Source of the DNA: Escherichia coli
Lineage (GTDB): Bacteria > Pseudomonadota > Gammaproteobacteria > Enterobacterales > Enterobacteriaceae
Length of the DNA: 64,000 nucleotides
Direction: 5' to 3' (one strand)
NCBI RefSeq assembly: GCF_024298765.1
Contig: NZ_CP101210.1
Shown: piece by piece, positions 3,365 through 46,890 of the stretch
How the letters are laid out: each line of letters starts with the position of its first letter
Position numbering within the stretch: position 1 is the stretch's first letter
Notes under the pieces: model-generated
The model's database searches: none
Seen by the model: only the letters and a program-made list of their open reading frames with translations
Told to the model about the DNA's origin: nothing
Translations under genes and position numbers: made by a program

Positions 3365-3916
3365 ATGACTAAGCAGCCCGAAGACTGGCTCGACGACGTT
3401 CCCGGTGATGACATCGAAGACGAAGACGATGAAATTATCTGGGTCAGTAAAAGTGAAATTAAACGCGATGCCGAGGAGCTAAAACGCCTTGGCGCGGAAA
3501 TTGTTGATCTGGGGAAAAACGCGCTGGATAAGATCCCGTTAGATGCGGATCTGCGCGCGGCTATTGAGCTCGCCCAGCGTATTAAGATGGAAGGTCGCCG
3601 CCGCCAGTTGCAGCTCATCGGTAAGATGCTGCGCCAGCGCGATGTTGAGCCTATTCGTCAGGCGCTGGATAAGCTGAAAAACCGCCACAACCAGCAAGTG
3701 GTGTTGTTCCATAAACTGGAAAACCTGCGCGATCGTCTGATCGAGCAAGGTGATGACGCCATCGCTGAAGTATTGAATCTGTGGCCCGATGCCGATCGTC
3801 AGCAACTGCGTACTCTGATCCGTAACGCGAAGAAAGAGAAAGAAGGGAATAAGCCGCCGAAATCCGCGCGCCAGATTTTCCAGTATCTGCGTGAGTTAGC
3901 GGAAAACGAAGGGTAA
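3365..3916 (+). CDS. yjgA: Ribosome-associated DUF615 protein YjgA (DarP)
   Basis: 183 aa acidic/basic ORF divergent from pmbA. Confidence 0.88.
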
Positions 3917-3942
3917 TTTTCGTTGTTGATGTGAGTATGGTT

Positions 3943-4047
3943 TGCCGGATGCGGTGCACCTGTAGGCCTGATAAGACGCATCAAGCGTCGCATCAGGCAC
4001 TATGCTCAAATGCCGGATGCGGCGTGAACGCCTTATCCGGCCTACAC
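3943..4047. repeat. REP/BIME cluster
   Basis: GCCGGATGCGG...CCTTATCCGGCCTACA units plus GGCCTGATAAGACGC...GCGTCGCATCAGGC unit. Confidence 0.8.
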
Positions 4048-31321: not shown

Positions 31322-31350
31322 TATAAAGACAAAGGCACCCGCAGGTGCCT
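31322..31350 (-). terminator. Putative terminator downstream of cycA
   Basis: AAGGCACC-CGCA-GGTGCCTT hairpin followed on the minus strand by a T-rich tract. Confidence 0.5.
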
Positions 31351-31371
31351 TTCAGAGTGATAAACGCGGCA

Positions 31372-32775: not shown

Positions 32776-33083
32776 GTTTTTTTCTTCCTGTACCTGTCTG
32801 TGTTGTTCAGGCTCTGCGGCCTTTTGTACGTCTATGATACGACGAATCTGTATCGGGACTCATCGATATTAGGTAAGAATAAGCGGGATGAATACTAAGA
32901 TTTAAATATTATGTTAATTACATGTTGAATTTGAGGGTCATATCACTCTGGTAACGCGAAACAGCTCACAAAAATAACCGCAACAGAGCCATTTGCAACA
33001 TAAAATATCGACAGTAAGCAAATTCTAGTTTTTACGCTCTGTTGTCCATTCCCCTCAAATCTGAGGGGAACAGAATGCGCTGC

Positions 33084-33921: not shown

Positions 33922-34560
33922 ATGCCCGGGCGCTTTGAACTAAAACCAACCCTGGAGAAAGTCTGGCACGCGCCGGACAATTTTCGCTTCATGGACCCGC
34001 TGCCGCCGATGCATCGTCGGGGGATCATTATTGCCGCCATTGTATTGGTGGTCGGATTTCTGCTTCCATCTGATGATACGCCCAACGCGCCGGTGGTGAC
34101 GCGTGAAGCACAGTTAGATATTCAGTCGCAATCACAACCACCGACAGAAGAACAGCTGCGGGCGCAATTAGTTACGCCACAAAATGATCCTGATCAGGTG
34201 GCTCCGGTCGCTCCAGAACCAATACAGGAAGGCCAGCCAGAAGAACAGCCGCAAACCACCCAAACGCAACCATTCCAGTCAGATAGCGGAATTGATAATC
34301 AATGGCGCTCCTATCGTGTCGAACCTGGTAAAACGATGGCGCAACTGTTCCGCGACCACGGACTGCCCGCTACCGATGTCTATGCCATGGCGCAGGTAGA
34401 AGGCGCGGATAAGCCACTGAGTAATTTGCAAAACGGGCAGATGGTGAAAATCCGCCAGAACGCCAGCGGCGTGGTGACGGGCTTAACCATTGATACGGGG
34501 AATAATCAACAGGTCCTGTTTACCCGCCAGCCGGATGGCAGTTTTATTCGTGCGCGGTAG
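33922..34560 (+). CDS. ytfB: Cell-division-associated protein YtfB (OapA/LysM-like C-terminus)
   Basis: Start at [10 protein letters not shown] (212 aa); single TM segment and Pro/Gln-rich linker. Confidence 0.88.
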
Positions 34561-35191
34561 ATGAAGGGTCAACCAAAAGCCAGCTAAGGATTGTCTCTTT
34601 GATGACCTTACGTCTGGCTTCCAGTGCCTGGGGTGAAACCATACTGATGTGATAAACCAGGCCAAGCGTATGCTGGTTGATCAAATAATATCCCCCAAGC
34701 GCAGCAATATTAATATTCACCTGCAATGGGTCGATATCTGGCTTAAAAATATTGTGTTTCTTCCCTTCATCCAATAAGGATTCCATTAACTGCAAGTGCG
34801 CATGGTTAATTTCTAAGAGACGCTGTGATTTTGCATAATGCACACCTTTACTTTGATTTTCACTATGCACAATTTTTAAAAACCAGGGATTAGAAATATA
34901 ATAATCCCATGTAAAATCGATTATTTTCTCAATGGCTTTCTGTGGCGGAAGATCTGAGAAATCAAGGGCCTTTTCTTTTTGTCGAATATCGTTCCAGGTA
35001 TATTCCAGTACTTCGATAAATAAATTTTCTTTATTACCAAAGTGGTGATAAACCGTCTGTTTACTGCACCCCGCGGCCTTGACGATATTATCGACTCTGG
35101 CCCCTTCGTAACCATATTCGGCAAATTCATTAACCGCGCATAACAGCAGCTTTTCTTTCAGGCTCTGTACGTTGCTGGTATCAAGATACAT
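34544..35191 (-). CDS. TetR/AcrR-family transcriptional regulator
   Basis: HTH region [44 protein letters not shown]; start taken at [11 protein letters not shown]-rich; divergent from the downstream operon. Confidence 0.8.
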
Positions 35192-35313
35192 AACGCTTCC
35201 CCACGACCTCTTCGTGGTGACTATCATAACCTGATTTGATTTCAGCTTCAGAAAAAAGGGCAAAAACTTGTACTTTCATCAGGTTATCAAATGTCCTGTG
35301 ATCGCCATCGCAT

Positions 35314-35335
35314 ATCAACCAACTAGATGGTTGAT
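35314..35335. promoter_or_regulatory. Candidate TetR operator (inverted repeat ATCAACCA-actaga-TGGTTGAT)
   Basis: Perfect 8-bp arms in the divergent intergenic region between the TetR gene and the SDR gene. Confidence 0.35.
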
Positions 35336-35403
35336 CTTTTTATCCTCCAGTCGCAAGCTAATCATCACTAAGGAAACAAAATTCAAAAAAAGAGAGCTAT
35401 TGT

Positions 35404-36195
35404 ATGAAATCCACTCGTCCTGTTGCCGTGATTACCGGAGCCGCACGTGGTATTGGAAAGGGCTGTGCGCTGGAGCTTGCGCGTGGCGGATTTAATCTGC
35501 TGATTAATGATCGTCCGGATACCGATAGCGTAGAAAAATTACATGCCACACAACAAGAATGTCTGGCGGAAGGCGTGGAAGTGATTTGCTTCCCTGCTGA
35601 TGTTGGCGATCTCTCCCTGCATGAAGAGATGCTCGACGCAGCGCAAAACCAGTGGGGACGTCTGGACTGCCTGCTCAACAACGCAGGCATTTCAGTGAAA
35701 AAACGCGGTGATCTTCTCGACCTCGAACCAGACAGCTTCGACCAAAATATTGCCATTAACACCCGCGCACCGTTCTTCCTCGCTCAGGCATTCAGTAAGC
35801 GCTTACTGGCACAGCCGAAACCGGAAGCAGAACTGCCGCACCGCTCGATTATTTTCGTCAGTTCCATCAACGCCATCATGCTGGCGATGAATCGCGGCGA
35901 ATATACCATTGCCAAAACTGCCGTCTCTGCCGCTGCTCGTCTGTTTGCTGCTCGCCTTTGTAATGAACAAATTGGCGTTTATGAAGTGCGTCCTGGTCTC
36001 ATCAAAACCGATATGACTATTCCGGCAACGGCCTATTACGACGAACTGATTGCCAAAGGTCTGGTGCCGTGGGGACGTTGGGGTTATCCGGCTGATATTG
36101 CTTCCACTGTCCGCGCGATGGCGGAAGGTAAACTGATTTACACCTGTGGTCAGGCGGTCGCCATCGACGGCGGCTTAAGTATGCCGCGCTTCTGA
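35404..36195 (+). CDS. Short-chain dehydrogenase/reductase (SDR) family oxidoreductase
   Basis: 263 aa; TGAARGIG cofactor motif near the N-terminus. Confidence 0.85.
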   Translation: MKSTRPVAVITGAARGIGKGCALELARGGFNLLINDRPDTDSVEKLHATQQECLAEGVEVICFPADVGDLSLHEEMLDAAQNQWGRLDCLLNNAGISVKKRGDLLDLEPDSFDQNIAINTRAPFFLAQAFSKRLLAQPKPEAELPHRSIIFVSSINAIMLAMNRGEYTIAKTAVSAAARLFAARLCNEQIGVYEVRPGLIKTDMTIPATAYYDELIAKGLVPWGRWGYPADIASTVRAMAEGKLIYTCGQAVAIDGGLSMPRF

Positions 36196-36204
36196 GGCTG
36201 AATC

Positions 36205-37047
36205 ATGAGAGATCTGTTACAACGCCCGGATTTATTCAGTATCAATACCGCGACACTGGGCTATAAAACGCCGCTGCCCGCCATTATTGATGCCTGCGCC
36301 GCACGCGGTATTGGCGCCATTGCCCCCTGGCGCAGGGAGTTGCAGGGTGAAGATCTCCAGCAAATCGCCCGCCAGCTTGCTGCCAGTAACATAAACGTTT
36401 CCGGTTTGTGCCGTAGCACCTACTACACCGCACCGACGCTGGCGGAGCGCAAACTGGCGATTGACGATAACCGCCGGGCGCTGGACGACGCCGCTGTACT
36501 GAACGCCGCCTGTTATATGCAGGTGGTTGGCGGTCTGCCAATGGGAACAAAAGATCTGTATGAAGCGCGGGAACAAGTGAAACAAGGGATTCGCCAGTTA
36601 CTGCCACATTCGAAAGAGGTCGGCGTGCCGATTGCGCTGGAGCCGCTACACCCGATGACCGCAGCCGATCGTTCCTGTTTGTGCACGTTACGTCAGGCGC
36701 TGGACTGGTGTGATGAACTCGATCCCGATGGCGAATTTGGCCTCGGCGTGGCGGTAGATGTCTACCATGTCTGGTGGGACCCGGATCTCGCCAGTCAGAT
36801 CCTGCGTGCCGGAAAACGCATCCTCGCGTTTCATGTTTCCGACTGGTTAGTGCCGACCACCGATCTGGTCAATGACCGTGGAATGCCGGGAGATGGTGTC
36901 ATCAATATTCCGTCAATTCGTCGGCTGGTTGAAAACGCCGGATTTAATGGCGCTATTGAACTGGAAATATTCTCACCGTACTGGTGGCAGAAAGATATTA
37001 ACAGCACGCTGGATATTAGCGTCGATCGCATCGCACATTATTGTTAA
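36205..37047 (+). CDS. Sugar phosphate isomerase/epimerase (xylose-isomerase-like TIM barrel)
   Basis: 280 aa; family assigned from overall resemblance only; 9-nt gap to SDR gene. Confidence 0.7.
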   Translation: MRDLLQRPDLFSINTATLGYKTPLPAIIDACAARGIGAIAPWRRELQGEDLQQIARQLAASNINVSGLCRSTYYTAPTLAERKLAIDDNRRALDDAAVLNAACYMQVVGGLPMGTKDLYEAREQVKQGIRQLLPHSKEVGVPIALEPLHPMTAADRSCLCTLRQALDWCDELDPDGEFGLGVAVDVYHVWWDPDLASQILRAGKRILAFHVSDWLVPTTDLVNDRGMPGDGVINIPSIRRLVENAGFNGAIELEIFSPYWWQKDINSTLDISVDRIAHYC

Positions 37048-37056
37048 GGAATAATC

Positions 37057-37833
37057 ATGAGTGACCAACCCGTTCTGTTCAGCAGAGCGGCGGCTTCTTG
37101 CCGCCTGACATTGAACCGTGAAGATAAATGTCATGCTATTAATGAAGAAATGATCGAATCTCTCGACCATTATTTAAATGAAATTGAAAACGACACCACA
37201 TTACGATTAGTCGAATTAACGGCAACCGGCGATAAATTCTTTTGTGCGGGCGGCGATATTAAATCGTGGTCGGCCTATTCGCCATTAGATATGGGCAGAA
37301 AATGGATTAAACGCGGTAACGAGGTTTTTAATCGCCTGCGCAACTTACCCCAATTAACCGTTGCGAATCTCAACGGTCATACCATCGGTGGCGGTATTGA
37401 ACTTGCCTTGTGCTGCGATATTCGTATCGCTCGCCCCGGCGCGAAATTCTCTAACCCGGAAGTGATGCTCGGCATGGTGCCTGGCTGGATGGGCATTGAA
37501 CGCGTGCTTAATCAGGTTGGCCCGGTGGTCGGTCGCCAGATGCTGATGCTGGGTAAACGCCTGACGGCGCAGGAAGCTCAGGTGGCGAATTTAATTGATG
37601 AAGTGGTAGAAAAAGAACAGGTGGAAAGCTGGATGGCGAACCAGTTAGCGCAGCTGGAAAAATGTGGTCCGGTGGCACTGGCACATATTAAGCAACTGAT
37701 TCTGGCGCTGGAAAATAAACACGCCGATTACTCCCACCAGTTACTGGCTGGATTAATGTCCGCCACTCAGGATTGCCAACAGGCGACGCACGCATTTGCC
37801 GAAAAAGCCGGCGTGAGCTTCCACAATCAATAA
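37057..37833 (+). CDS. Enoyl-CoA hydratase/isomerase (crotonase) family protein
   Basis: 258 aa; crotonase-fold motifs (FCAGGDIK, GHTIGGGIELAL). Confidence 0.85.
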   Translation: MSDQPVLFSRAAASCRLTLNREDKCHAINEEMIESLDHYLNEIENDTTLRLVELTATGDKFFCAGGDIKSWSAYSPLDMGRKWIKRGNEVFNRLRNLPQLTVANLNGHTIGGGIELALCCDIRIARPGAKFSNPEVMLGMVPGWMGIERVLNQVGPVVGRQMLMLGKRLTAQEAQVANLIDEVVEKEQVESWMANQLAQLEKCGPVALAHIKQLILALENKHADYSHQLLAGLMSATQDCQQATHAFAEKAGVSFHNQ

Positions 37834-37842
37834 GGAAATTGT

Positions 37843-39384
37843 ATGCGTAAGTTATCAACCGCCGAGACACTGGCGGCGCAAATTCAGGACGGCGCAACCA
37901 TTGCCATTAGCGGCAACGGCGGCGGCATGGTGGAAGCTGACCATATTCTGGCCGCCATTGAAGCGCGCTTTCTGCAAACCGGACACCCGCGCGATCTGAC
38001 ATTAATCCACTCGCTGGGTATTGGCGATCGCGACAGCAAAGGCACTAACCGTTTTGCTCACGCCGAAATGCTCAAACGCATTATTGCCGGACATTTTACC
38101 TGGTCGCCCAAGATGCAGGAACTGGTGAAAAGCAATGCTATTGAAGCCTACTGTTTCCCTGGTGGCGTAATTCAGGCACTGCTGCGGGAGATCGGTGCCG
38201 GACGTCCGGGGCTTTTTACCCACGTTGGGCTGGGATCGTTTGTTGATCCACGCAATGGTGGCGGTAAGTCGAATGAATGCACGACCGACGACCTGGTAGA
38301 ACTGATTGAAATCGACGGTGAAACCAAACTCCGCTATCGCCCTTTCAAAGTGGACTACGCGATTTTGCGCGGCACCTATGCCGATCCGCGTGGCAACGTT
38401 AGCCTCGAAGAAGAAGCGATTGATATGGATAGCTATTCGATGGCGCTGGCAGCACACAACAGTGGCGGCAAAGTGTTTGTACAGGTGCGCGATGTACTGG
38501 AAGCTGGCGCCATTGAACCTCGCAAGGTCAAGCTACCGGGGATTCTGGTCGATGGTATCGTTGAACACCGCGAACAACCGCAAACCTATCTTGGCGGTTA
38601 CGACCTGACCATCAGCGGTCAGCATCGCCGTCTAAGTTCTAACGACGCTATTGAACTGGTTAGTCATCCGGTGCGTCGCCTGATTGCCCGTCGGGCAGCG
38701 CGGGAACTGGCGGCAGGTGCTTCAACCAACTTTGGCTTTGGTATTCCCGGCGGTATTCCTGGGGTTGCACTGCGCGAAGGCGTGCCTTATCAAAGTTTGT
38801 GGCTGAGTGTAGAACAGGGTGTACATAACGGCATGATGCTGGATGATGCTCTGTTCGGCTGCGCCCGTAACGCCGATGCCATTATTCCATCACTCGATCA
38901 ATTCGAATTCTACAGTGGCGGCGGTATCGATATCACCTTCCTCGGCATGGGAGAGATGGATCGGTACGGTAACGTCAACGTATCCCATCTCAATGGCAAT
39001 CTCATTGGCCCCGGCGGCTTCCTCGAAATTGCGCAAAACGCCCGTAAAGTGGTGTTCTGCGGTACGTTCGACGCTAAAGGCAGCAAGATTGATGTAACGC
39101 CTGATGGCCTGCATATCGCCCAGTCAGGTCAAATCCCCAAACTGGTTACCCAGGTGGAAAAAATTACTTTTAGCGCCGCATACGCACAGCAAAGCAGTCA
39201 GGAAGTGCTGTATATCACCGAACGTGCGGTATTCCAGTTAACGGCAGAAGGCGTTGAATTAATTGAGATCGCCCCTGGCGTAGAGATTGACCGCGACATT
39301 CTGCCGTATATGGCCTTCCGTCCGATTATCAGGCACCCACGCCTGATGGAAAGTAGCCTGTTTACGCCAATGGAGGATGCATGA
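37843..39384 (+). CDS. Family I CoA-transferase (fused alpha/beta; propionate/acetate CoA-transferase-like)
   Basis: 513 aa; assigned by resemblance to YdiF/Pct-type CoA transferases. Confidence 0.75.
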   Translation: MRKLSTAETLAAQIQDGATIAISGNGGGMVEADHILAAIEARFLQTGHPRDLTLIHSLGIGDRDSKGTNRFAHAEMLKRIIAGHFTWSPKMQELVKSNAIEAYCFPGGVIQALLREIGAGRPGLFTHVGLGSFVDPRNGGGKSNECTTDDLVELIEIDGETKLRYRPFKVDYAILRGTYADPRGNVSLEEEAIDMDSYSMALAAHNSGGKVFVQVRDVLEAGAIEPRKVKLPGILVDGIVEHREQPQTYLGGYDLTISGQHRRLSSNDAIELVSHPVRRLIARRAARELAAGASTNFGFGIPGGIPGVALREGVPYQSLWLSVEQGVHNGMMLDDALFGCARNADAIIPSLDQFEFYSGGGIDITFLGMGEMDRYGNVNVSHLNGNLIGPGGFLEIAQNARKVVFCGTFDAKGSKIDVTPDGLHIAQSGQIPKLVTQVEKITFSAAYAQQSSQEVLYITERAVFQLTAEGVELIEIAPGVEIDRDILPYMAFRPIIRHPRLMESSLFTPMEDA

Positions 39385-41453
39385 GTCAGCTTGATGAGGC
39401 CATCCTTGATGCACTGACACACGTTACTTTCCCAAAGGGTTTTGCACAGGCAGAACCCGCATGGGTTGTCACGGTAGACGGTGTTGATTACCCACTCTGG
39501 AAAACAGATGCCCTGGTAGTCGGCAGTGGTGCAGCCGGGCTACGTGCAGCTGTGGAACTTAAACGCCGCCAGCAAAATGTGTTAATCGCCACCGCCGGGT
39601 TATATATGGGGACATCGGCATGTTCTGGCTCTGATAAACAAACACTGTTTACCGCCGCTACCGCGGGCAACGGCGACAACTTCGCCAAACTGGCAGAGGC
39701 ACTGGCGAGCGGTGGGGCGATGGATCACGACACCGCTTATGTCGAAGCGGTAGGTTCTCTGCACACTCTTGGCGGGTTGCAATATCTTGGTCTGGAATTA
39801 CCGGAAGATCGCTATGGCGCGATTCTTCGTTATCAAACCGACCATGACGAAGCCGGGCGTGCAACCTCGTGTGGGCCGCGTACCTCAAGGTTAATGGTGA
39901 AAGTGCTGCTGGAAGAAGTACAGCGTCTTGCTATCCCAATGTTGACCAGTGCAACAGTGATTAAACTGCTGCATCAGCGTGACGAAAACGGTGAAGACCG
40001 TGTGGCGGGGGCAATCCTCGCGACCGGTCATCGCGCCCATAACCCATGGGGGCTGGCAATTGTGACTGCGCCCAATGTGGTACTGGCAACAGGAGGGCCT
40101 GGCGAGCTTTATCGCGACAGTGTGTATCCACACAAATGTTTCGGCTCGCTGGGGCTGGCGCTGGAGGAAGGTCTGACGCTAACCAATCTGACTGAAAGCC
40201 AGTTTGGTATCGGCACACCGCGCAGCACGTTTCCGTGGAATTTGTCCGGCACCTATGTGCAGGTGATCCCGTATATCTATTCCGTGGATGCCGAGGGCAA
40301 CGAGTATAACTTCCTCGCGGATTACTATCGCACCACCCAAGAGCTGGCTTCAAACATTTTCCGTAAAGGCTATCAGTGGCCGTTCCACGCCACGCGGGTA
40401 ATGGATTTTGGCTCCAGCTTGTTAGATATGGCGGTGGCGCAAGAGCAGCAACATGGTCGCCAGGTGTTTATGGATTTCAATCGCAATCCTGAAGTGGTGC
40501 CGGGTGACCTGCCCTTCTCATTAGATCGACTGGACGACGACGTTCGCGCGTATCTGGAAAATAACGACGCTCTGGCACCATCGCCCATCGAACGACTGCA
40601 ACGAATGAATCCGCTGTCTATCTCGCTGTATAAGATGCACGGTTACGATCTCACCACGCAGCCATTGCAGTTTGCCATGAATAATCAGCATATGAATGGC
40701 GGCATTGAAGTGGATATCTGGGGACAAACATCTCTGCCCGGTTGTTTTGCTGTGGGGGAAGTTGCTGGCACACACGGCGTCACCCGACCTGGCGGTGCGG
40801 CATTGAATGCCGGGCAGGTTTTTGCTGTTCGTCTGGCACGTTTTATTGGTTGCACGCAAAAGCGGAATATTGATGGAGATATAGCACAGCTGGCAGCTCC
40901 GGCACTGGCTTCTATAAGAGAGATCATTACTCAGGCGCACGATAACGGAACCGGGATGCCGTTGTCGGTTGTGAGGGAAAAAATTCAGGCACGAATGTCT
41001 GACCATGCGGGATTTATTTGTCATGCCGATAAAGTCCGACGCGCCACTCGTGATGCCCTGCTATTGAGTGAATTTGTGCAACGGCATGGATTGGCAATCA
41101 AACATGTGGGTGAAGTTGCCGAGCTGTTTATGTGGCGGCATATGGCGCTGACTTCTGCCGCGGTATTAACACAATTAACGCATTATATTGATGCTGGTGG
41201 TGGTAGCCGTGGGGCGCGTATGGTTATAGATCCACAAGGCAAATGCCTACCACAAACTCGTCGCGGCGCAAAAGAAGAATGGCGTTTTCGCTCTGAACTC
41301 GCTGAAGACAAAAATCACAAATTAACAATTCAATATTCGCAAGGTTCTTTTATTACCGAAGTAAAGTCTTTACGTATTCAACCGTGTATTAACGGTATTT
41401 ACTTTGAAAAAAACTGGCCAGACTTTTTAAAGGGAGACATTTACACACAATAA
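39381..41453 (+). CDS. FAD-dependent oxidoreductase (fumarate reductase/succinate dehydrogenase flavoprotein-like)
   Basis: 690 aa; dinucleotide-binding motif VVGSGAAGLRAAVEL; ATGA overlap with the upstream CoA-transferase. Confidence 0.75.
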   Translation: MSQLDEAILDALTHVTFPKGFAQAEPAWVVTVDGVDYPLWKTDALVVGSGAAGLRAAVELKRRQQNVLIATAGLYMGTSACSGSDKQTLFTAATAGNGDNFAKLAEALASGGAMDHDTAYVEAVGSLHTLGGLQYLGLELPEDRYGAILRYQTDHDEAGRATSCGPRTSRLMVKVLLEEVQRLAIPMLTSATVIKLLHQRDENGEDRVAGAILATGHRAHNPWGLAIVTAPNVVLATGGPGELYRDSVYPHKCFGSLGLALEEGLTLTNLTESQFGIGTPRSTFPWNLSGTYVQVIPYIYSVDAEGNEYNFLADYYRTTQELASNIFRKGYQWPFHATRVMDFGSSLLDMAVAQEQQHGRQVFMDFNRNPEVVPGDLPFSLDRLDDDVRAYLENNDALAPSPIERLQRMNPLSISLYKMHGYDLTTQPLQFAMNNQHMNGGIEVDIWGQTSLPGCFAVGEVAGTHGVTRPGGAALNAGQVFAVRLARFIGCTQKRNIDGDIAQLAAPALASIREIITQAHDNGTGMPLSVVREKIQARMSDHAGFICHADKVRRATRDALLLSEFVQRHGLAIKHVGEVAELFMWRHMALTSAAVLTQLTHYIDAGGGSRGARMVIDPQGKCLPQTRRGAKEEWRFRSELAEDKNHKLTIQYSQGSFITEVKSLRIQPCINGIYFEKNWPDFLKGDIYTQ

Positions 41454-41545: not shown

Positions 41546-42823
41546 ATGAATAAAATAAAGAATTATCGATGGTATATGATTGCCCTCGTATGCTTTATCA
41601 CTGTAATCAATTATCTGGACAGAACGGCGTTAGGTATTGCGGCTCCAACGATTATGGAGACAACCGGAATAACCAAAGAACAATATTCATGGATTGTCAG
41701 TGCATTCCAGTTGGCCTATACATTAGGGCAACCGGTAATGGGCTTCTTTATTGATACCGTGGGTCTGAAGTTAAGTTTTGCGATATGTGCCGCAATTTGG
41801 GGCCTGGCGACAATGGGCCATGCACTAACCGGAACGTGGTCTGGTCTGGCATTTATGCGCGCCCTGATGGGTTTCAGCGAAGCGTCGGCAATTCCGGCGG
41901 GTGTAAAAACCGCATCAACATGGTTCCCGGCAAAAGAGCGTGGCGTGGCGACAGGTGTTTTCAATATGGGCACCTCACTCGGCGCGATGCTTGCTCCACC
42001 GTTGATTGCCTGGTGCATTATGTTTCATAGCTGGCAATTTGCGTTTATTGTTTCAGGTAGCCTTGCTTTGCTCGCGGCTTTATTTTGGTTCTTTTGTTAT
42101 AAAGATCCGAAAGATGCCAAACGCCTTTCTGATGAAGAGCGCCACTATATTGAATCAGGACAAGAACAGCATCTTAAAACAGATAAGAAAGAAAAAACAT
42201 CAATCAAGCATATCCTCAGCCAACGTAATTTCTGGGGGATTGGCATCGCGCGTTTTCTCGCAGACCCGGCATGGGGAACCATTAACTTCTGGGTGCCGAT
42301 TTTCTTCGTCGAAACGCTGCATTTTAGCCTGAAAGAAATTGCCATGTTCGTCTGGCTGCCTTTCCTGCTGGGCGATCTCGGCTGTTTAGCCAGTGGTTTT
42401 GTCGCGAAGTTCTTCCACGATCGCGGCGTGAGTTTAATTAACTCACGAAGAATTACCTTCACTATTGCAGCCGTCATTATGATGACGATTGGCCTGGTGA
42501 GTATTGTCGAAAATCCCTACATTGCCGTATTACTGATTAGTATTGGCGCGTTCTCGCATCAATGCCTTTCTACTGTAGCAGCAACTCTGGGTGGCGATCT
42601 GTTCAAAAAAGACGAAGTAGCTACCGCAGTGGGTATGGCAGGAGCCTGTGCGTGGAGCGGTCAGTTGATTTTCAACCTGTTCATCGGGGCATTCGTTCAC
42701 ATTATCGGCTTCGCGCCGTTCTTTATTGCCCTGGCTTTCTTTGACATTATTGGCGCCATTGCGCTGTGGATGCTTATCAAAGTTAAAGACGAAGAACTAC
42801 AAGTACAGTTAGCGACAAGCTAA
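41546..42823 (+). CDS. MFS transporter (anion:cation symporter family, hexuronate/glucarate-transporter-like)
   Basis: 425 aa 12-TM ORF; N-terminus NYLDRTALGIAAP typical of ExuT/GudP-like carriers. Confidence 0.82.
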   Translation: MNKIKNYRWYMIALVCFITVINYLDRTALGIAAPTIMETTGITKEQYSWIVSAFQLAYTLGQPVMGFFIDTVGLKLSFAICAAIWGLATMGHALTGTWSGLAFMRALMGFSEASAIPAGVKTASTWFPAKERGVATGVFNMGTSLGAMLAPPLIAWCIMFHSWQFAFIVSGSLALLAALFWFFCYKDPKDAKRLSDEERHYIESGQEQHLKTDKKEKTSIKHILSQRNFWGIGIARFLADPAWGTINFWVPIFFVETLHFSLKEIAMFVWLPFLLGDLGCLASGFVAKFFHDRGVSLINSRRITFTIAAVIMMTIGLVSIVENPYIAVLLISIGAFSHQCLSTVAATLGGDLFKKDEVATAVGMAGACAWSGQLIFNLFIGAFVHIIGFAPFFIALAFFDIIGAIALWMLIKVKDEELQVQLATS

Positions 42824-42960: not shown

Positions 42961-44228
42961 CTAAATTGCCCCCCTGAATGCCTCTGCCATTAACTCTTGC
43001 TCACGACCAGGTAATCGAAGACGCTCGGCAATGATTCGCCACTGACTGACAATCCCTCTAAAATTAGCAATAATGTCATCTGCTTCTGTCAAACCAAGTC
43101 GAAAATACTCCGCAACTTCTCGAGCTAATTCCAAATCAAGTGCATTATCATTTCTGTAATATTGAGTTTTAGACCGTCAGACCTGGCAACAGGATTCAAA
43201 TCATATGCCTCAGAAAGCCGCCAACCTTTTCCCGGTATCAAGATATATCCATGATTACGTAAATGGTCATCGGTATTAGAAACAAGAATATTAAAAACAA
43301 TCCTGGACCAGAGTTCCTTAAGGTCAGTATTAGTCTGCGCTCCATGTCTGATAAGAACATCTGCTAATTCCAGATAACTCACACCTGTAGAGGCATCTTC
43401 ACCATCCTGATGCCTGGTTAGTGTCATAGCCGAAGCAAAATGCAGACGCCTTCCCGCATTAGTGCGGTCAAAACGACGAACCATAAAACAATGGTAATTG
43501 CTGGCAAATTTATGCGCCTGAGCAGGTGCAACATTCAGTCCACAGCCAACAGCAAGTGCATTAACGACCATTTCCCATCCACCAACATCATACTCATCTT
43601 TTACACTGGGAAATTTAGCGATGTAGAGATGCCCAGCTTCATCAACAACACTGGCTTTCGGACGTGCCCCCCCTAATGATCCCCCCGGAGCGATTAGCAT
43701 TCTTAACCATTTTTGCCCCATTAGCTCTTTATTATCAGGATCTTCTTCAATTGCCCGGCTAGCCCTTTCCAGACTCGCTATTTCGGTAAATGGTGGGGCT
43801 GCAACATCAATGCGATTATCAAGAAACTCTCCAGCGTCTTCACGTTTGTATCGAAGAGCCCCAACCCGATAAAGATCATGAACACCTAGTAGATAATCAG
43901 ACTCATAAAGGTGGGAGTCTTTATCACATAACCCGTCTCGAATATCCCTCTCAAAACGACGCTTCATTAGCATACGCCCCCAACGATCCGGGCAGGAATC
44001 ACTAAATGCACCAAATTTATCCTTTGGAGGAATTGGGTACTGTGCTCCCTCATACAACATTATTTCAGGATCTAACTGAATGAAATTAAGTGAAGGATCT
44101 GCAAGCGCCTTTTTATCGTACTCAAACTCAAATATCTCACGCGTCCGAGTGCGGCGACTGTGTAAATAACCAATCCGCTCCGGACCATCCAGGCCTTCCC
44201 AATCCGCATACACTCCGATTAATGCCAT
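42961..44228 (-). pseudogene. HipA-family serine/threonine kinase toxin, frameshifted (367-aa ORF plus ~56 codons continuing in another frame)
   Basis: HipA motifs (APGGSLGGARPK, DDHLRNHG, AYDLNP); ORF stops at 43125 but frame continues to stop at 42961 after a 1-nt shift in an A run near 43151-43153. Confidence 0.7.
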
Positions 44229-44230
44229 AA

Positions 44231-44722
44231 TTAATTTCCTTTTAACGGTTTTTTTATCGGTTTTAATAGTGCTGCAAGAGAGGTTGATGTTTCTCCTGTA
44301 ATAGATGGCGTCGAGCCTTCTGCCAGTGCTGTTAAATCCGTGGTGAGATGACCTTCTTTCTCGTGCCTCATCTGCAATGAGGCTGTCTGAGAACCTTCTT
44401 CATTCTTACTTGATGCACGAGAAAGCCCTCTTTTTTTAATCAAACGGGAATCCTGGAGCTGACGCCCTAAGTCGTCTTCAGCTGCAAGCTTATTTAAATC
44501 CGTTTCCAGGCCCAAAACCTGCATCACAGACAAATATGCCCCTATCGTGACCCCTGCACTTCCTGACTCCAGAGAGCGCAATGTTATTGGCGACATCCCA
44601 GCACGTTCAGCAACTTGCTTTGCGGTAAGCCTGCGTCGTAAACGAGCAAGTTTCAGCCGCTCACCAAATTCACTAAGCATCTGATTCGTATAAGGGAGTA
44701 ACGGTGCTGTTTTTTTACCCAT
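44231..44722 (-). CDS. HipB-like XRE-family HTH antitoxin with long Ser/Thr-rich C-terminal extension
   Basis: 163 aa; [26 protein letters not shown]; stop 2 nt before hipA-like start. Confidence 0.75.
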
Positions 44723-46690: not shown

Positions 46691-46890
46691 GGCCAGCCGA
46701 CAAATAAATCTCATCCTTCACCAAATCGTACTAACACGCTGATTTGAAGTTCATCACACTTCATCATGGTGTTTTTTTGAACAACTGCATCAGAAATGGT
46801 CACCATCCACTTCTTTATCATTGATTAAAATTAAATCAGAAGATCACCACAAGAGGAGAGCACACAAAGTCAGCCGTCGAGGAGGTATCT

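Follow-up and report, generated by a model that had tools for sequence, protein, structure and literature searches.

The window that we analysed is a stretch of 64,000 nucleotides of the Escherichia coli chromosome, in which cycA, fklB and ytfB lie to one side of the locus of interest and rplI to the other. At this locus the minus-strand gene ytfA and a plus-strand SDR gene diverge from a 212-bp gap, the SDR gene being the first of six genes that form the target operon. The operon was delimited from open reading frames, Pfam, NCBIfam and RefSeq annotation, and ytfA from Pfam and the RefSeq annotation of an identical locus:

34544–35191, minus strand: ytfA, TetR/AcrR-family regulator, 215 aa
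35404–42823, plus strand: target operon, six genes
35404–36195, plus strand: SDR, operon gene 1
36205–37047, plus strand: xylose-isomerase-like TIM barrel, operon gene 2
37057–37833, plus strand: enoyl-CoA hydratase, operon gene 3
37843–39384, plus strand: CoA-transferase, 513 aa, operon gene 4
39381–41453, plus strand: FAD oxidoreductase, 690 aa, operon gene 5
41546–42823, plus strand: organic-anion-type MFS transporter, operon gene 6

At the far side of the regulator gene, ytfB (plus strand) and ytfA (minus strand) share 17 bp at their 3′ ends (34544–34560), and no terminator is evident between them, so that the convergent transcripts must overlap.

YtfA carries the Pfam domains TetR_N (PF00440, 1.9e-14) and TetR_C_29 (PF17938, 4.4e-30), and its AlphaFold model (pLDDT 90) shows an all-helical TetR fold with 11 helices. 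The nearest solved structures are 3npi, the uncharacterised protein DIP1788, and then E. coli RutR (TM 0.72–0.79, Foldseek). Two database proteins (P0064 and P0067) look frameshifted in the HTH region. Searches of NCBIfam and of PDB sequences gave no specific function for YtfA, the TIM-barrel protein, the CoA-transferase or the FAD enzyme. YtfA is known only from a listing as a TetR-family regulator of variable presence (PMC6790063), and literature searches with the site sequence described below, with ytfA and TetR, and with the gene neighbourhood returned no functional study and no paper containing the site sequence.

Within the 212-bp gap, the sequence-only reading had pointed to a perfect inverted repeat with an ACTAGA spacer, some 70–90 bp upstream of the SDR gene, and its placement proved exact to the base. 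Positions 35314–35335 read ATCAACCAACTAGATGGTTGAT, with 8-bp perfect arms (ATCAACCA and TGGTTGAT) around the 6-bp spacer ACTAGA, and the repeat lies 69–90 bp upstream of the SDR ATG (35404) and 123–144 bp from the ytfA ATG (35191). Because the central CTAG is itself palindromic, the whole element can be described as a 22-bp dyad with 10 of 11 pairs. We distinguish the full element from its core, neither of which is assigned to a strand:

35314–35335, no strand: candidate YtfA operator ATCAACCAaCTAGaTGGTTGAT, a 22-bp palindrome, from the sequence, inverted-repeat detection and conservation
35317–35332, no strand: operator core AACCAAC-TAG-ATGGTT, 16 bp, with 7 of 8 dyad pairs

About 11 bp separate the half-site centres, a spacing that would suit one TetR dimer, and a dyad of 22 bp falls inside the 15–30 bp size class of operators. 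On the scale of the 64-kb window the palindrome alone is not beyond chance: first-order Markov shuffles of the window gave 0.73 ± 0.88 22-mers with at least 10 of 11 pairs per 64 kb, and three were found, while perfect 8-6-8 repeats were expected 1.29 ± 1.1 times per 64 kb, and six were found. Inside the 212-bp gap itself, about 0.002 dyads of such quality are expected. The other two dyads with at least 10 of 11 pairs, both 22 bp long and G+C-rich, lie at 31331–31352 (AAAGGCACCCGCAGGTGCCTTT) and 33049–33070 (TTCCCCTCAAATCTGAGGGGAA), immediately beyond the 3′ ends of cycA and fklB, for which they probably serve as terminators. We count the palindrome of the ytfA–SDR gap as real because of its conservation across loci and not because of the quality of its symmetry.

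In order to follow the element across species, we gathered orthologous loci from E. whittamii, E. albertii, one cryptic Escherichia, Klebsiella spallanzanii, Salmonella, Citrobacter, Lelliottia, Leminorella and Entomohabitans, together with five more distant contigs in which the identity of the regulator is 57–67%; over the 15 loci this identity ranges from 57 to 99%. The footprint alignment was made from 13 intergenic regions, and a 14th and a 15th locus, checked separately, both conform. The scan of the genome collection also returned 20 alphaproteobacterial TetR loci (34–42% identity); none of the 20 carries the operon, and we therefore called them paralogs and left them out of the footprinting. 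At all orthologous loci the first four operon genes are syntenic, and the divergent arrangement of the TetR gene and the SDR, TIM-barrel, enoyl-CoA hydratase and CoA-transferase genes is kept.

The palindrome was found at all 15 loci and is the best-conserved 22-bp block of the intergenic alignment, with a mean column identity of 0.91 versus 0.66 elsewhere. Across Enterobacterales it is kept along with the regulator and the operon, whereas the DNA on either side has diverged. The longest invariant runs among the 13 sequences, AACCAAC (columns A135–C141) and GGTTG.T (its GGTTG being columns G147–G151), are the two arms of the palindrome. In its E. coli type the core is AACCAACTAGATGGTT, in its distant type AACCAACTATTTGGTT, and both keep 7 of 8 dyad pairs. 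Substitutions in the outer ATC of the left arm (ACC, TCC, CTA, CTT or TTT) are not compensated, and in one ortholog the left arm is TTGACCAAC; the outer GAT of the right arm is kept, presumably as part of the putative −35 hexamer described below. The invariant core of the site is paralleled by the recognition helix of the regulator, which is invariant among YtfA orthologs.

Across the 15 loci, the distance from the dyad centre to the SDR ATG is 74.5–89.5 bp and that to the ytfA ATG is 118.5–348.5 bp; judged from these distances, the site travels with the operon promoter and not with ytfA. At first sight Entomohabitans teleogrylli (L006, ~3665–3990) might pass for a locus lacking the site, as its ytfA–SDR gap measures 423 bp instead of the usual ~210 bp; we rejected this, as the palindrome is present at the usual distance from the SDR gene and the extra DNA, an unrelated G+C-rich insert of ~215 bp, lies between ytfA and the operator, adjoining ytfA. 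The most distant ortholog (L057, 57% regulator identity) carries, in addition to the usual site, a second operator-like dyad, AACCAACCGAATGGTTGG, at L057 3822–3847. This second dyad sits directly downstream of the putative −10 hexamer and over the predicted start, a two-operator layout that has no parallel at the other 14 loci, and a position from which only repression would make sense.

Within E. coli, a 1.9-kb query around the palindrome is 100% identical to many RefSeq genomes. The intergenic alleles fall into two classes that are only 82–85% identical to each other; we aligned three representatives of the divergent class, and all three carry the same 22-mer. The palindrome of strain H10407 differs at the centre only (CCAG instead of CTAG). 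We searched for further sites with a position weight matrix over the 64-kb window and, in complete genomes, through near-identical 32-mers containing the site. The matrix, built from the aligned sites, found no second site in the window, where the next best match scored 14 bits compared with 34 bits for the palindrome. Of 5426 complete E. coli genomes, 3143 contain a 32-mer with the site, almost without exception in a single copy (one genome has it in two places), and this number matches that of the genomes with the locus (3139), that is, 58% of E. coli. A single-copy site bound to its locus fits a dedicated local regulator.

A scan of positions 35100–35500 for consensus sigma-70 promoters found none, and the promoter model that we propose for the operon therefore rests on conservation. 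It comprises the following elements, listed with the CRP box upstream of them and the candidate −10 hexamer of ytfA:

35297–35312, no strand: CRP box TGTGATCGCCATCGCA, matching TGTGA-N6-TCACA at 9 of 10 positions, centred at 35304.5
35331–35336, plus strand: putative −35 hexamer TTGATC, overlapping the right arm of the palindrome, from a conserved hexamer with fixed spacing
35354–35359, plus strand: putative weak −10 hexamer CAAGCT, from an invariant A at −11 and T at −7
35223–35228, minus strand: putative −10 hexamer of ytfA, TATGAT, from invariant columns A41, A44, T45 and A46

At the −35 position all 15 loci have TTGATC, TTGATA or TTGTTC, followed at exactly 17 bp, through a spacer free in sequence, by a −10-like hexamer of the form [C/T]AnnnT (15/15: CAAGCT, CATCTT, CATTTT, CATCGT or TAAGTT). 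In the alignment of 13 sequences the −10 block reads GCAnnnT, and columns A173 and T177, corresponding to hexamer positions 2 and 6, are invariant. We read TTGATC-17 bp-[C/T]AnnnT as the likely signature of a −35/−10 pair with a weak −10, from which transcription of the operon is predicted to start near 35366. Other −10 candidates, TATCCT (35341–35346), GCTAAT (35357–35362) and TATCAA (35285–35290), were rejected, as the conserved A at −11 and T at −7 are absent or the spacing is non-canonical. Relative to the predicted start the palindrome spans about −52 to −31, with its centre at −41.5. The failure of the scan to find a strong sigma-70 promoter fits dependence on an activator.

On the other side of the gap, the invariant columns A41, A44, T45 and A46 correspond to T1, A2, T3 and T6 of the minus-strand hexamer TATGAT, which places the predicted start of ytfA near 35216 and the operator about 108 bp upstream of it (about 320 bp in one species, Entomohabitans, where it is further off). 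With the putative ytfA promoter at this distance, the gap does not look like a compact shared divergent promoter, and autoregulation through the site is doubtful. Between ytfA and the CRP box there is also a 10-bp perfect inverted repeat, ATAACCTGAT / ATCAGGTTAT (35226–35235 / 35278–35287), with arms 42 bp apart. It was considered as an operator and rejected, because its left copy coincides with the putative ytfA −10 and because it is perfect in the present allele only; elsewhere just ATAAC/GTTAT remains.

The CRP box abuts the palindrome on the side away from the SDR gene. It is conserved at all 15 loci, with 8–10 of 10 matches to the consensus, lies 19–20 bp from the dyad centre and is centred at −61.5 (−60.5 in six loci) relative to the start predicted from the −10-like hexamer. 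Matches to the CRP consensus number two in the window, with 1.6 expected, so that the box by itself is within chance. CRP ChIP-seq in ETEC H10407 gave a high-confidence peak with the site TGTGATCACTATCGCA, listed as ‘ETEC-specific/ytfA’ (PMC4287617), and the H10407 sequence identifies TGTGATCACTATCGCA as the orthologous box abutting the palindrome; in RefSeq coordinates the published peak centre falls about 200 bp away from this box. The box is thus occupied by CRP in vivo in a related strain. The only other CRP-like match of the window, at 46743–46758, is TTTGAAGTTCATCACA, the reverse complement of TGTGATGAACTTCAAA, which the same study lists as an H10407 CRP ChIP-seq site between yjfY and rpsF (PMC4287617). 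GATC (Dam) sites occur in both conserved boxes, at 35300–35303 in the CRP box and at 35333–35336 in the TTGATC shared by the −35 and the operator arm, the second of these sites being conserved in 13 of the 15 loci.

Taken together, these features make it very likely that the palindrome is the operator of YtfA and that YtfA represses the operon by occluding the −35 hexamer while CRP activates it. One YtfA dimer would sit on the dyad AACCAAC-N2-3-GGTTG, with half-site centres about 11 bp apart, and would cover the −35 TTGATC and the stretch up to a class-I CRP site at −61.5. Bound YtfA would then bar RNA polymerase, through both sigma region 4 and the alpha-CTD, from a promoter that would be intrinsically weak and in need of cAMP-CRP. 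A ligand bound to the C-terminal domain of YtfA would release it from the operator, and the operon would be on only in the presence of inducer and the absence of glucose. The candidate ligand is a transported organic acid or a CoA-thioester intermediate, the latter being conceivable given the CoA-transferase and the enoyl-CoA hydratase in the operon. If the model is right, transcription of the operon should start near 35366, depend on CRP and be derepressed in ytfA mutants.

The sequence-only reading had regarded the repeat as a TetR-family operator, set between the regulator and its operon in the divergent promoter region, through which the catabolic operon would be repressed in a ligand-responsive way. 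Size, conservation and overlap with the putative promoter speak for the operator; a compact promoter shared by both genes is not indicated, as the ytfA promoter would lie about 108 bp off. An operator of the adjacent TetR-family regulator, governing the operon, is therefore an interpretation that the sequence comparisons support with three refinements: the operator appears to serve the operon only, its functional core is probably the 16-bp element, with a right arm that would double as the −35, and the promoter is likely to depend on CRP as well. It is adjacency and co-occurrence, and these only, that suggest the assignment of the site to YtfA, and part of the conservation of the right arm could stem from promoter function, as this arm contributes to the putative −35 hexamer.

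As an operator the site is new; its kind is thoroughly familiar, and mechanistically it holds nothing unexpected. In TetR/tetO, QacR/IR1 and AcrR/acrAB, a palindromic operator of 15–30 bp, with half-sites about one helical turn apart, lies over the core promoter, and repression is relieved by a ligand. The present locus resembles these systems in its divergent regulator gene and in the size of the palindrome; an overlap of the palindrome with the core promoter is predicted. It differs from tetR/tetA in its long 212-bp gap, in an operator that would lie on the operon promoter only, about 108 bp from the predicted start of the regulator gene, and in the likely dependence on CRP as well; the tight overlap of two promoters and the autoregulation of tetR/tetA are not evident here.

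Among characterised proteins, RutR is the one structurally closest to YtfA, and the half-site core ACCA/TGGT is common to both. Nevertheless, the two proteins are only 26% identical, their recognition helices differ (SKQTVYHHF in YtfA, SKTNLLYYF in RutR), and RutR has multiple targets whereas the YtfA site is single-copy. The RutR box is the 16-bp TTGACCAnnTGGTCAA, in which 2 bp separate ACCA from TGGT (PMC2475637). We rejected the palindrome as a RutR box, as ACCA and TGGT are 6 bp apart here and the arms are thus 4 bp closer in the RutR box. The likeness to RutR is at best a weak lead that a reading head of this type may recognise ACCA, and not a sign of membership.

With the logic of lac the locus would share a CRP box at a predicted −61.5, a core promoter of weak elements and a repressor site specific to the pathway, and by analogy expression of the operon should need both cAMP-CRP and inducer. 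In contrast to lac, the repressor would be of the TetR and not of the LacI family, and the operator would lie between CRP and the −35 instead of over the start, a placement that depends on the predicted start. Weak sequence and structure matches to the acyl-CoA-sensing TetR proteins FadR of Bacillus and KstR2 reach into the ligand domain; however, the scores are far under the family cut-offs (46.8 bits versus a cut-off of 200 for FadR) and the operator sequences are unrelated.

The geometry that suggests occlusion of the −35 would also place the dyad centre at exactly −41.5, the classical position of a class-II activator, and YtfA could accordingly be an activator that, when bound to its ligand, recruits RNA polymerase in a tandem, class III-like arrangement with CRP at −61.5. 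The very weak −10 (2–3 of 6 matches) and the absence of a stand-alone promoter in the scan indicate that some activation is needed, and a few TetR-family proteins are known as activators. However, CRP alone could supply this activation, the conserved TTGATC beneath the site is recognisable as a −35 that sigma must contact, and the second site of L057, over the predicted start, is in a repressor position. The great majority of local TetR regulators that diverge from catabolic operons are repressors, and we consider activation by YtfA unlikely. Equally small is the chance that we give to a more unusual outcome, in which either the site is of the class-II type and YtfA is a ligand-dependent co-activator beside CRP or, with YtfA as repressor, the inducer is a CoA-thioester made by the CoA-transferase of the operon. 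The former would be an unusual role for a local TetR-family regulator; in the latter case the site could serve directly as a biosensor for the substrate of the pathway.

The link between YtfA and the site is not a physical one, and RutR, present in every E. coli, reads half-sites of the ACCA/TGGT type too; another factor, global or unlinked, might therefore bind the palindrome while YtfA acts elsewhere or is irrelevant. Yet the motif of a global factor would recur, and this site is single-copy and restricted to genomes with the ytfA locus. Nor is the RutR box matched, with its 2-bp in place of a 6-bp ACCA-TGGT spacer, and the locus contains no further regulator gene. Together with the parallel between the invariant recognition helix of YtfA orthologs and the invariant core of the site, this makes binding by another factor improbable.

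It is more improbable still that the symmetry is incidental, with the right arm, which overlaps TTGATC, mattering as a −35 only and the left arm being kept for contact with the alpha-CTD or for an UP-like contact: a single palindrome as good as this one could arise by chance in 64 kb, but the left arm AACCAAC is equally invariant and is not A/T-rich as an UP-like element would be, the second full dyad of L057 lies away from any −35 position, and 7 of 8 dyad pairs are kept in both the E. coli-type and the distant-type core through different central bases.

Similarly remote is the idea that the palindrome, followed by the T-run CTTTTTAT, acts as an RNA hairpin, either as a plus-strand terminator or as a leader attenuator, for instance on transcripts that read through from ytfB or that begin at a promoter upstream of 35314. 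A terminator scan flags the 8-bp stem, 6-nt loop and T-run, the RNA folds at −9 kcal/mol (z = −3.1), and most orthologs are T-rich 3′ of the repeat. However, the stem is weak (3 G-C pairs of 8) and would shrink to 6 A/T-rich base pairs in distant orthologs, there is no plus-strand gene end close by (that of ytfB, at 34560, is 754 bp off), and the element is kept at loci where the neighbour is not ytfB. Changes in the arms are uncompensated, the outer two pairs each being broken in 4 of 13 sequences, and the paired fraction (81.8%, compared with 81.5% when shuffled) and the covariation are not above shuffles. Given also that an Rfam search gave no match and that the conserved −35/17/−10 geometry sets the repeat upstream of the predicted start, we rejected a rho-independent terminator or attenuator.

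Repression by YtfA at a CRP-activated promoter thus remains the preferred reading, and the candidate operator, the promoter model and the CRP site provide a concrete handle on an accessory pathway that is absent from K-12. The locus is found in about 58% of complete E. coli genomes and in many Salmonella, Citrobacter and related genomes. A reporter carrying 35290–35403 in a ytfA+ background could reveal the inducer and hence the substrate of the pathway. In K-12 MG1655, the operator and the whole operon are lost, with yjfZ in their place, and the ytfA pseudogene is a 402-bp 3′ remnant of the regulator gene (L058 3695–4096; 4427694–4428095); a CRISPRi screen handles K-12 ytfA as a pseudogene. 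The regulator, its putative operator and a CoA-dependent organic-acid operon have escaped study because K-12 keeps just this remnant and YtfA has merely been listed.

In E. coli MDR_56 (NZ_CP019903.1 1719309–1722547), an IS4-like element, ISVsa5, lies inside the TetR gene, and the annotation shows two TetR pieces. This strain is a natural knock-out of the regulator, in which constitutive expression of the operon would be expected if YtfA is a repressor.

Downstream of the operon, a HipA-family toxin gene (42961–44228, minus strand) adjoins a HipB-like HTH gene (44231–44722). The hipA-type gene is split into a 367-aa open reading frame and, in a different frame, a C-terminal piece of 57 aa, and is therefore probably frameshifted; the annotation of strain 104 marks the gene as frameshifted.
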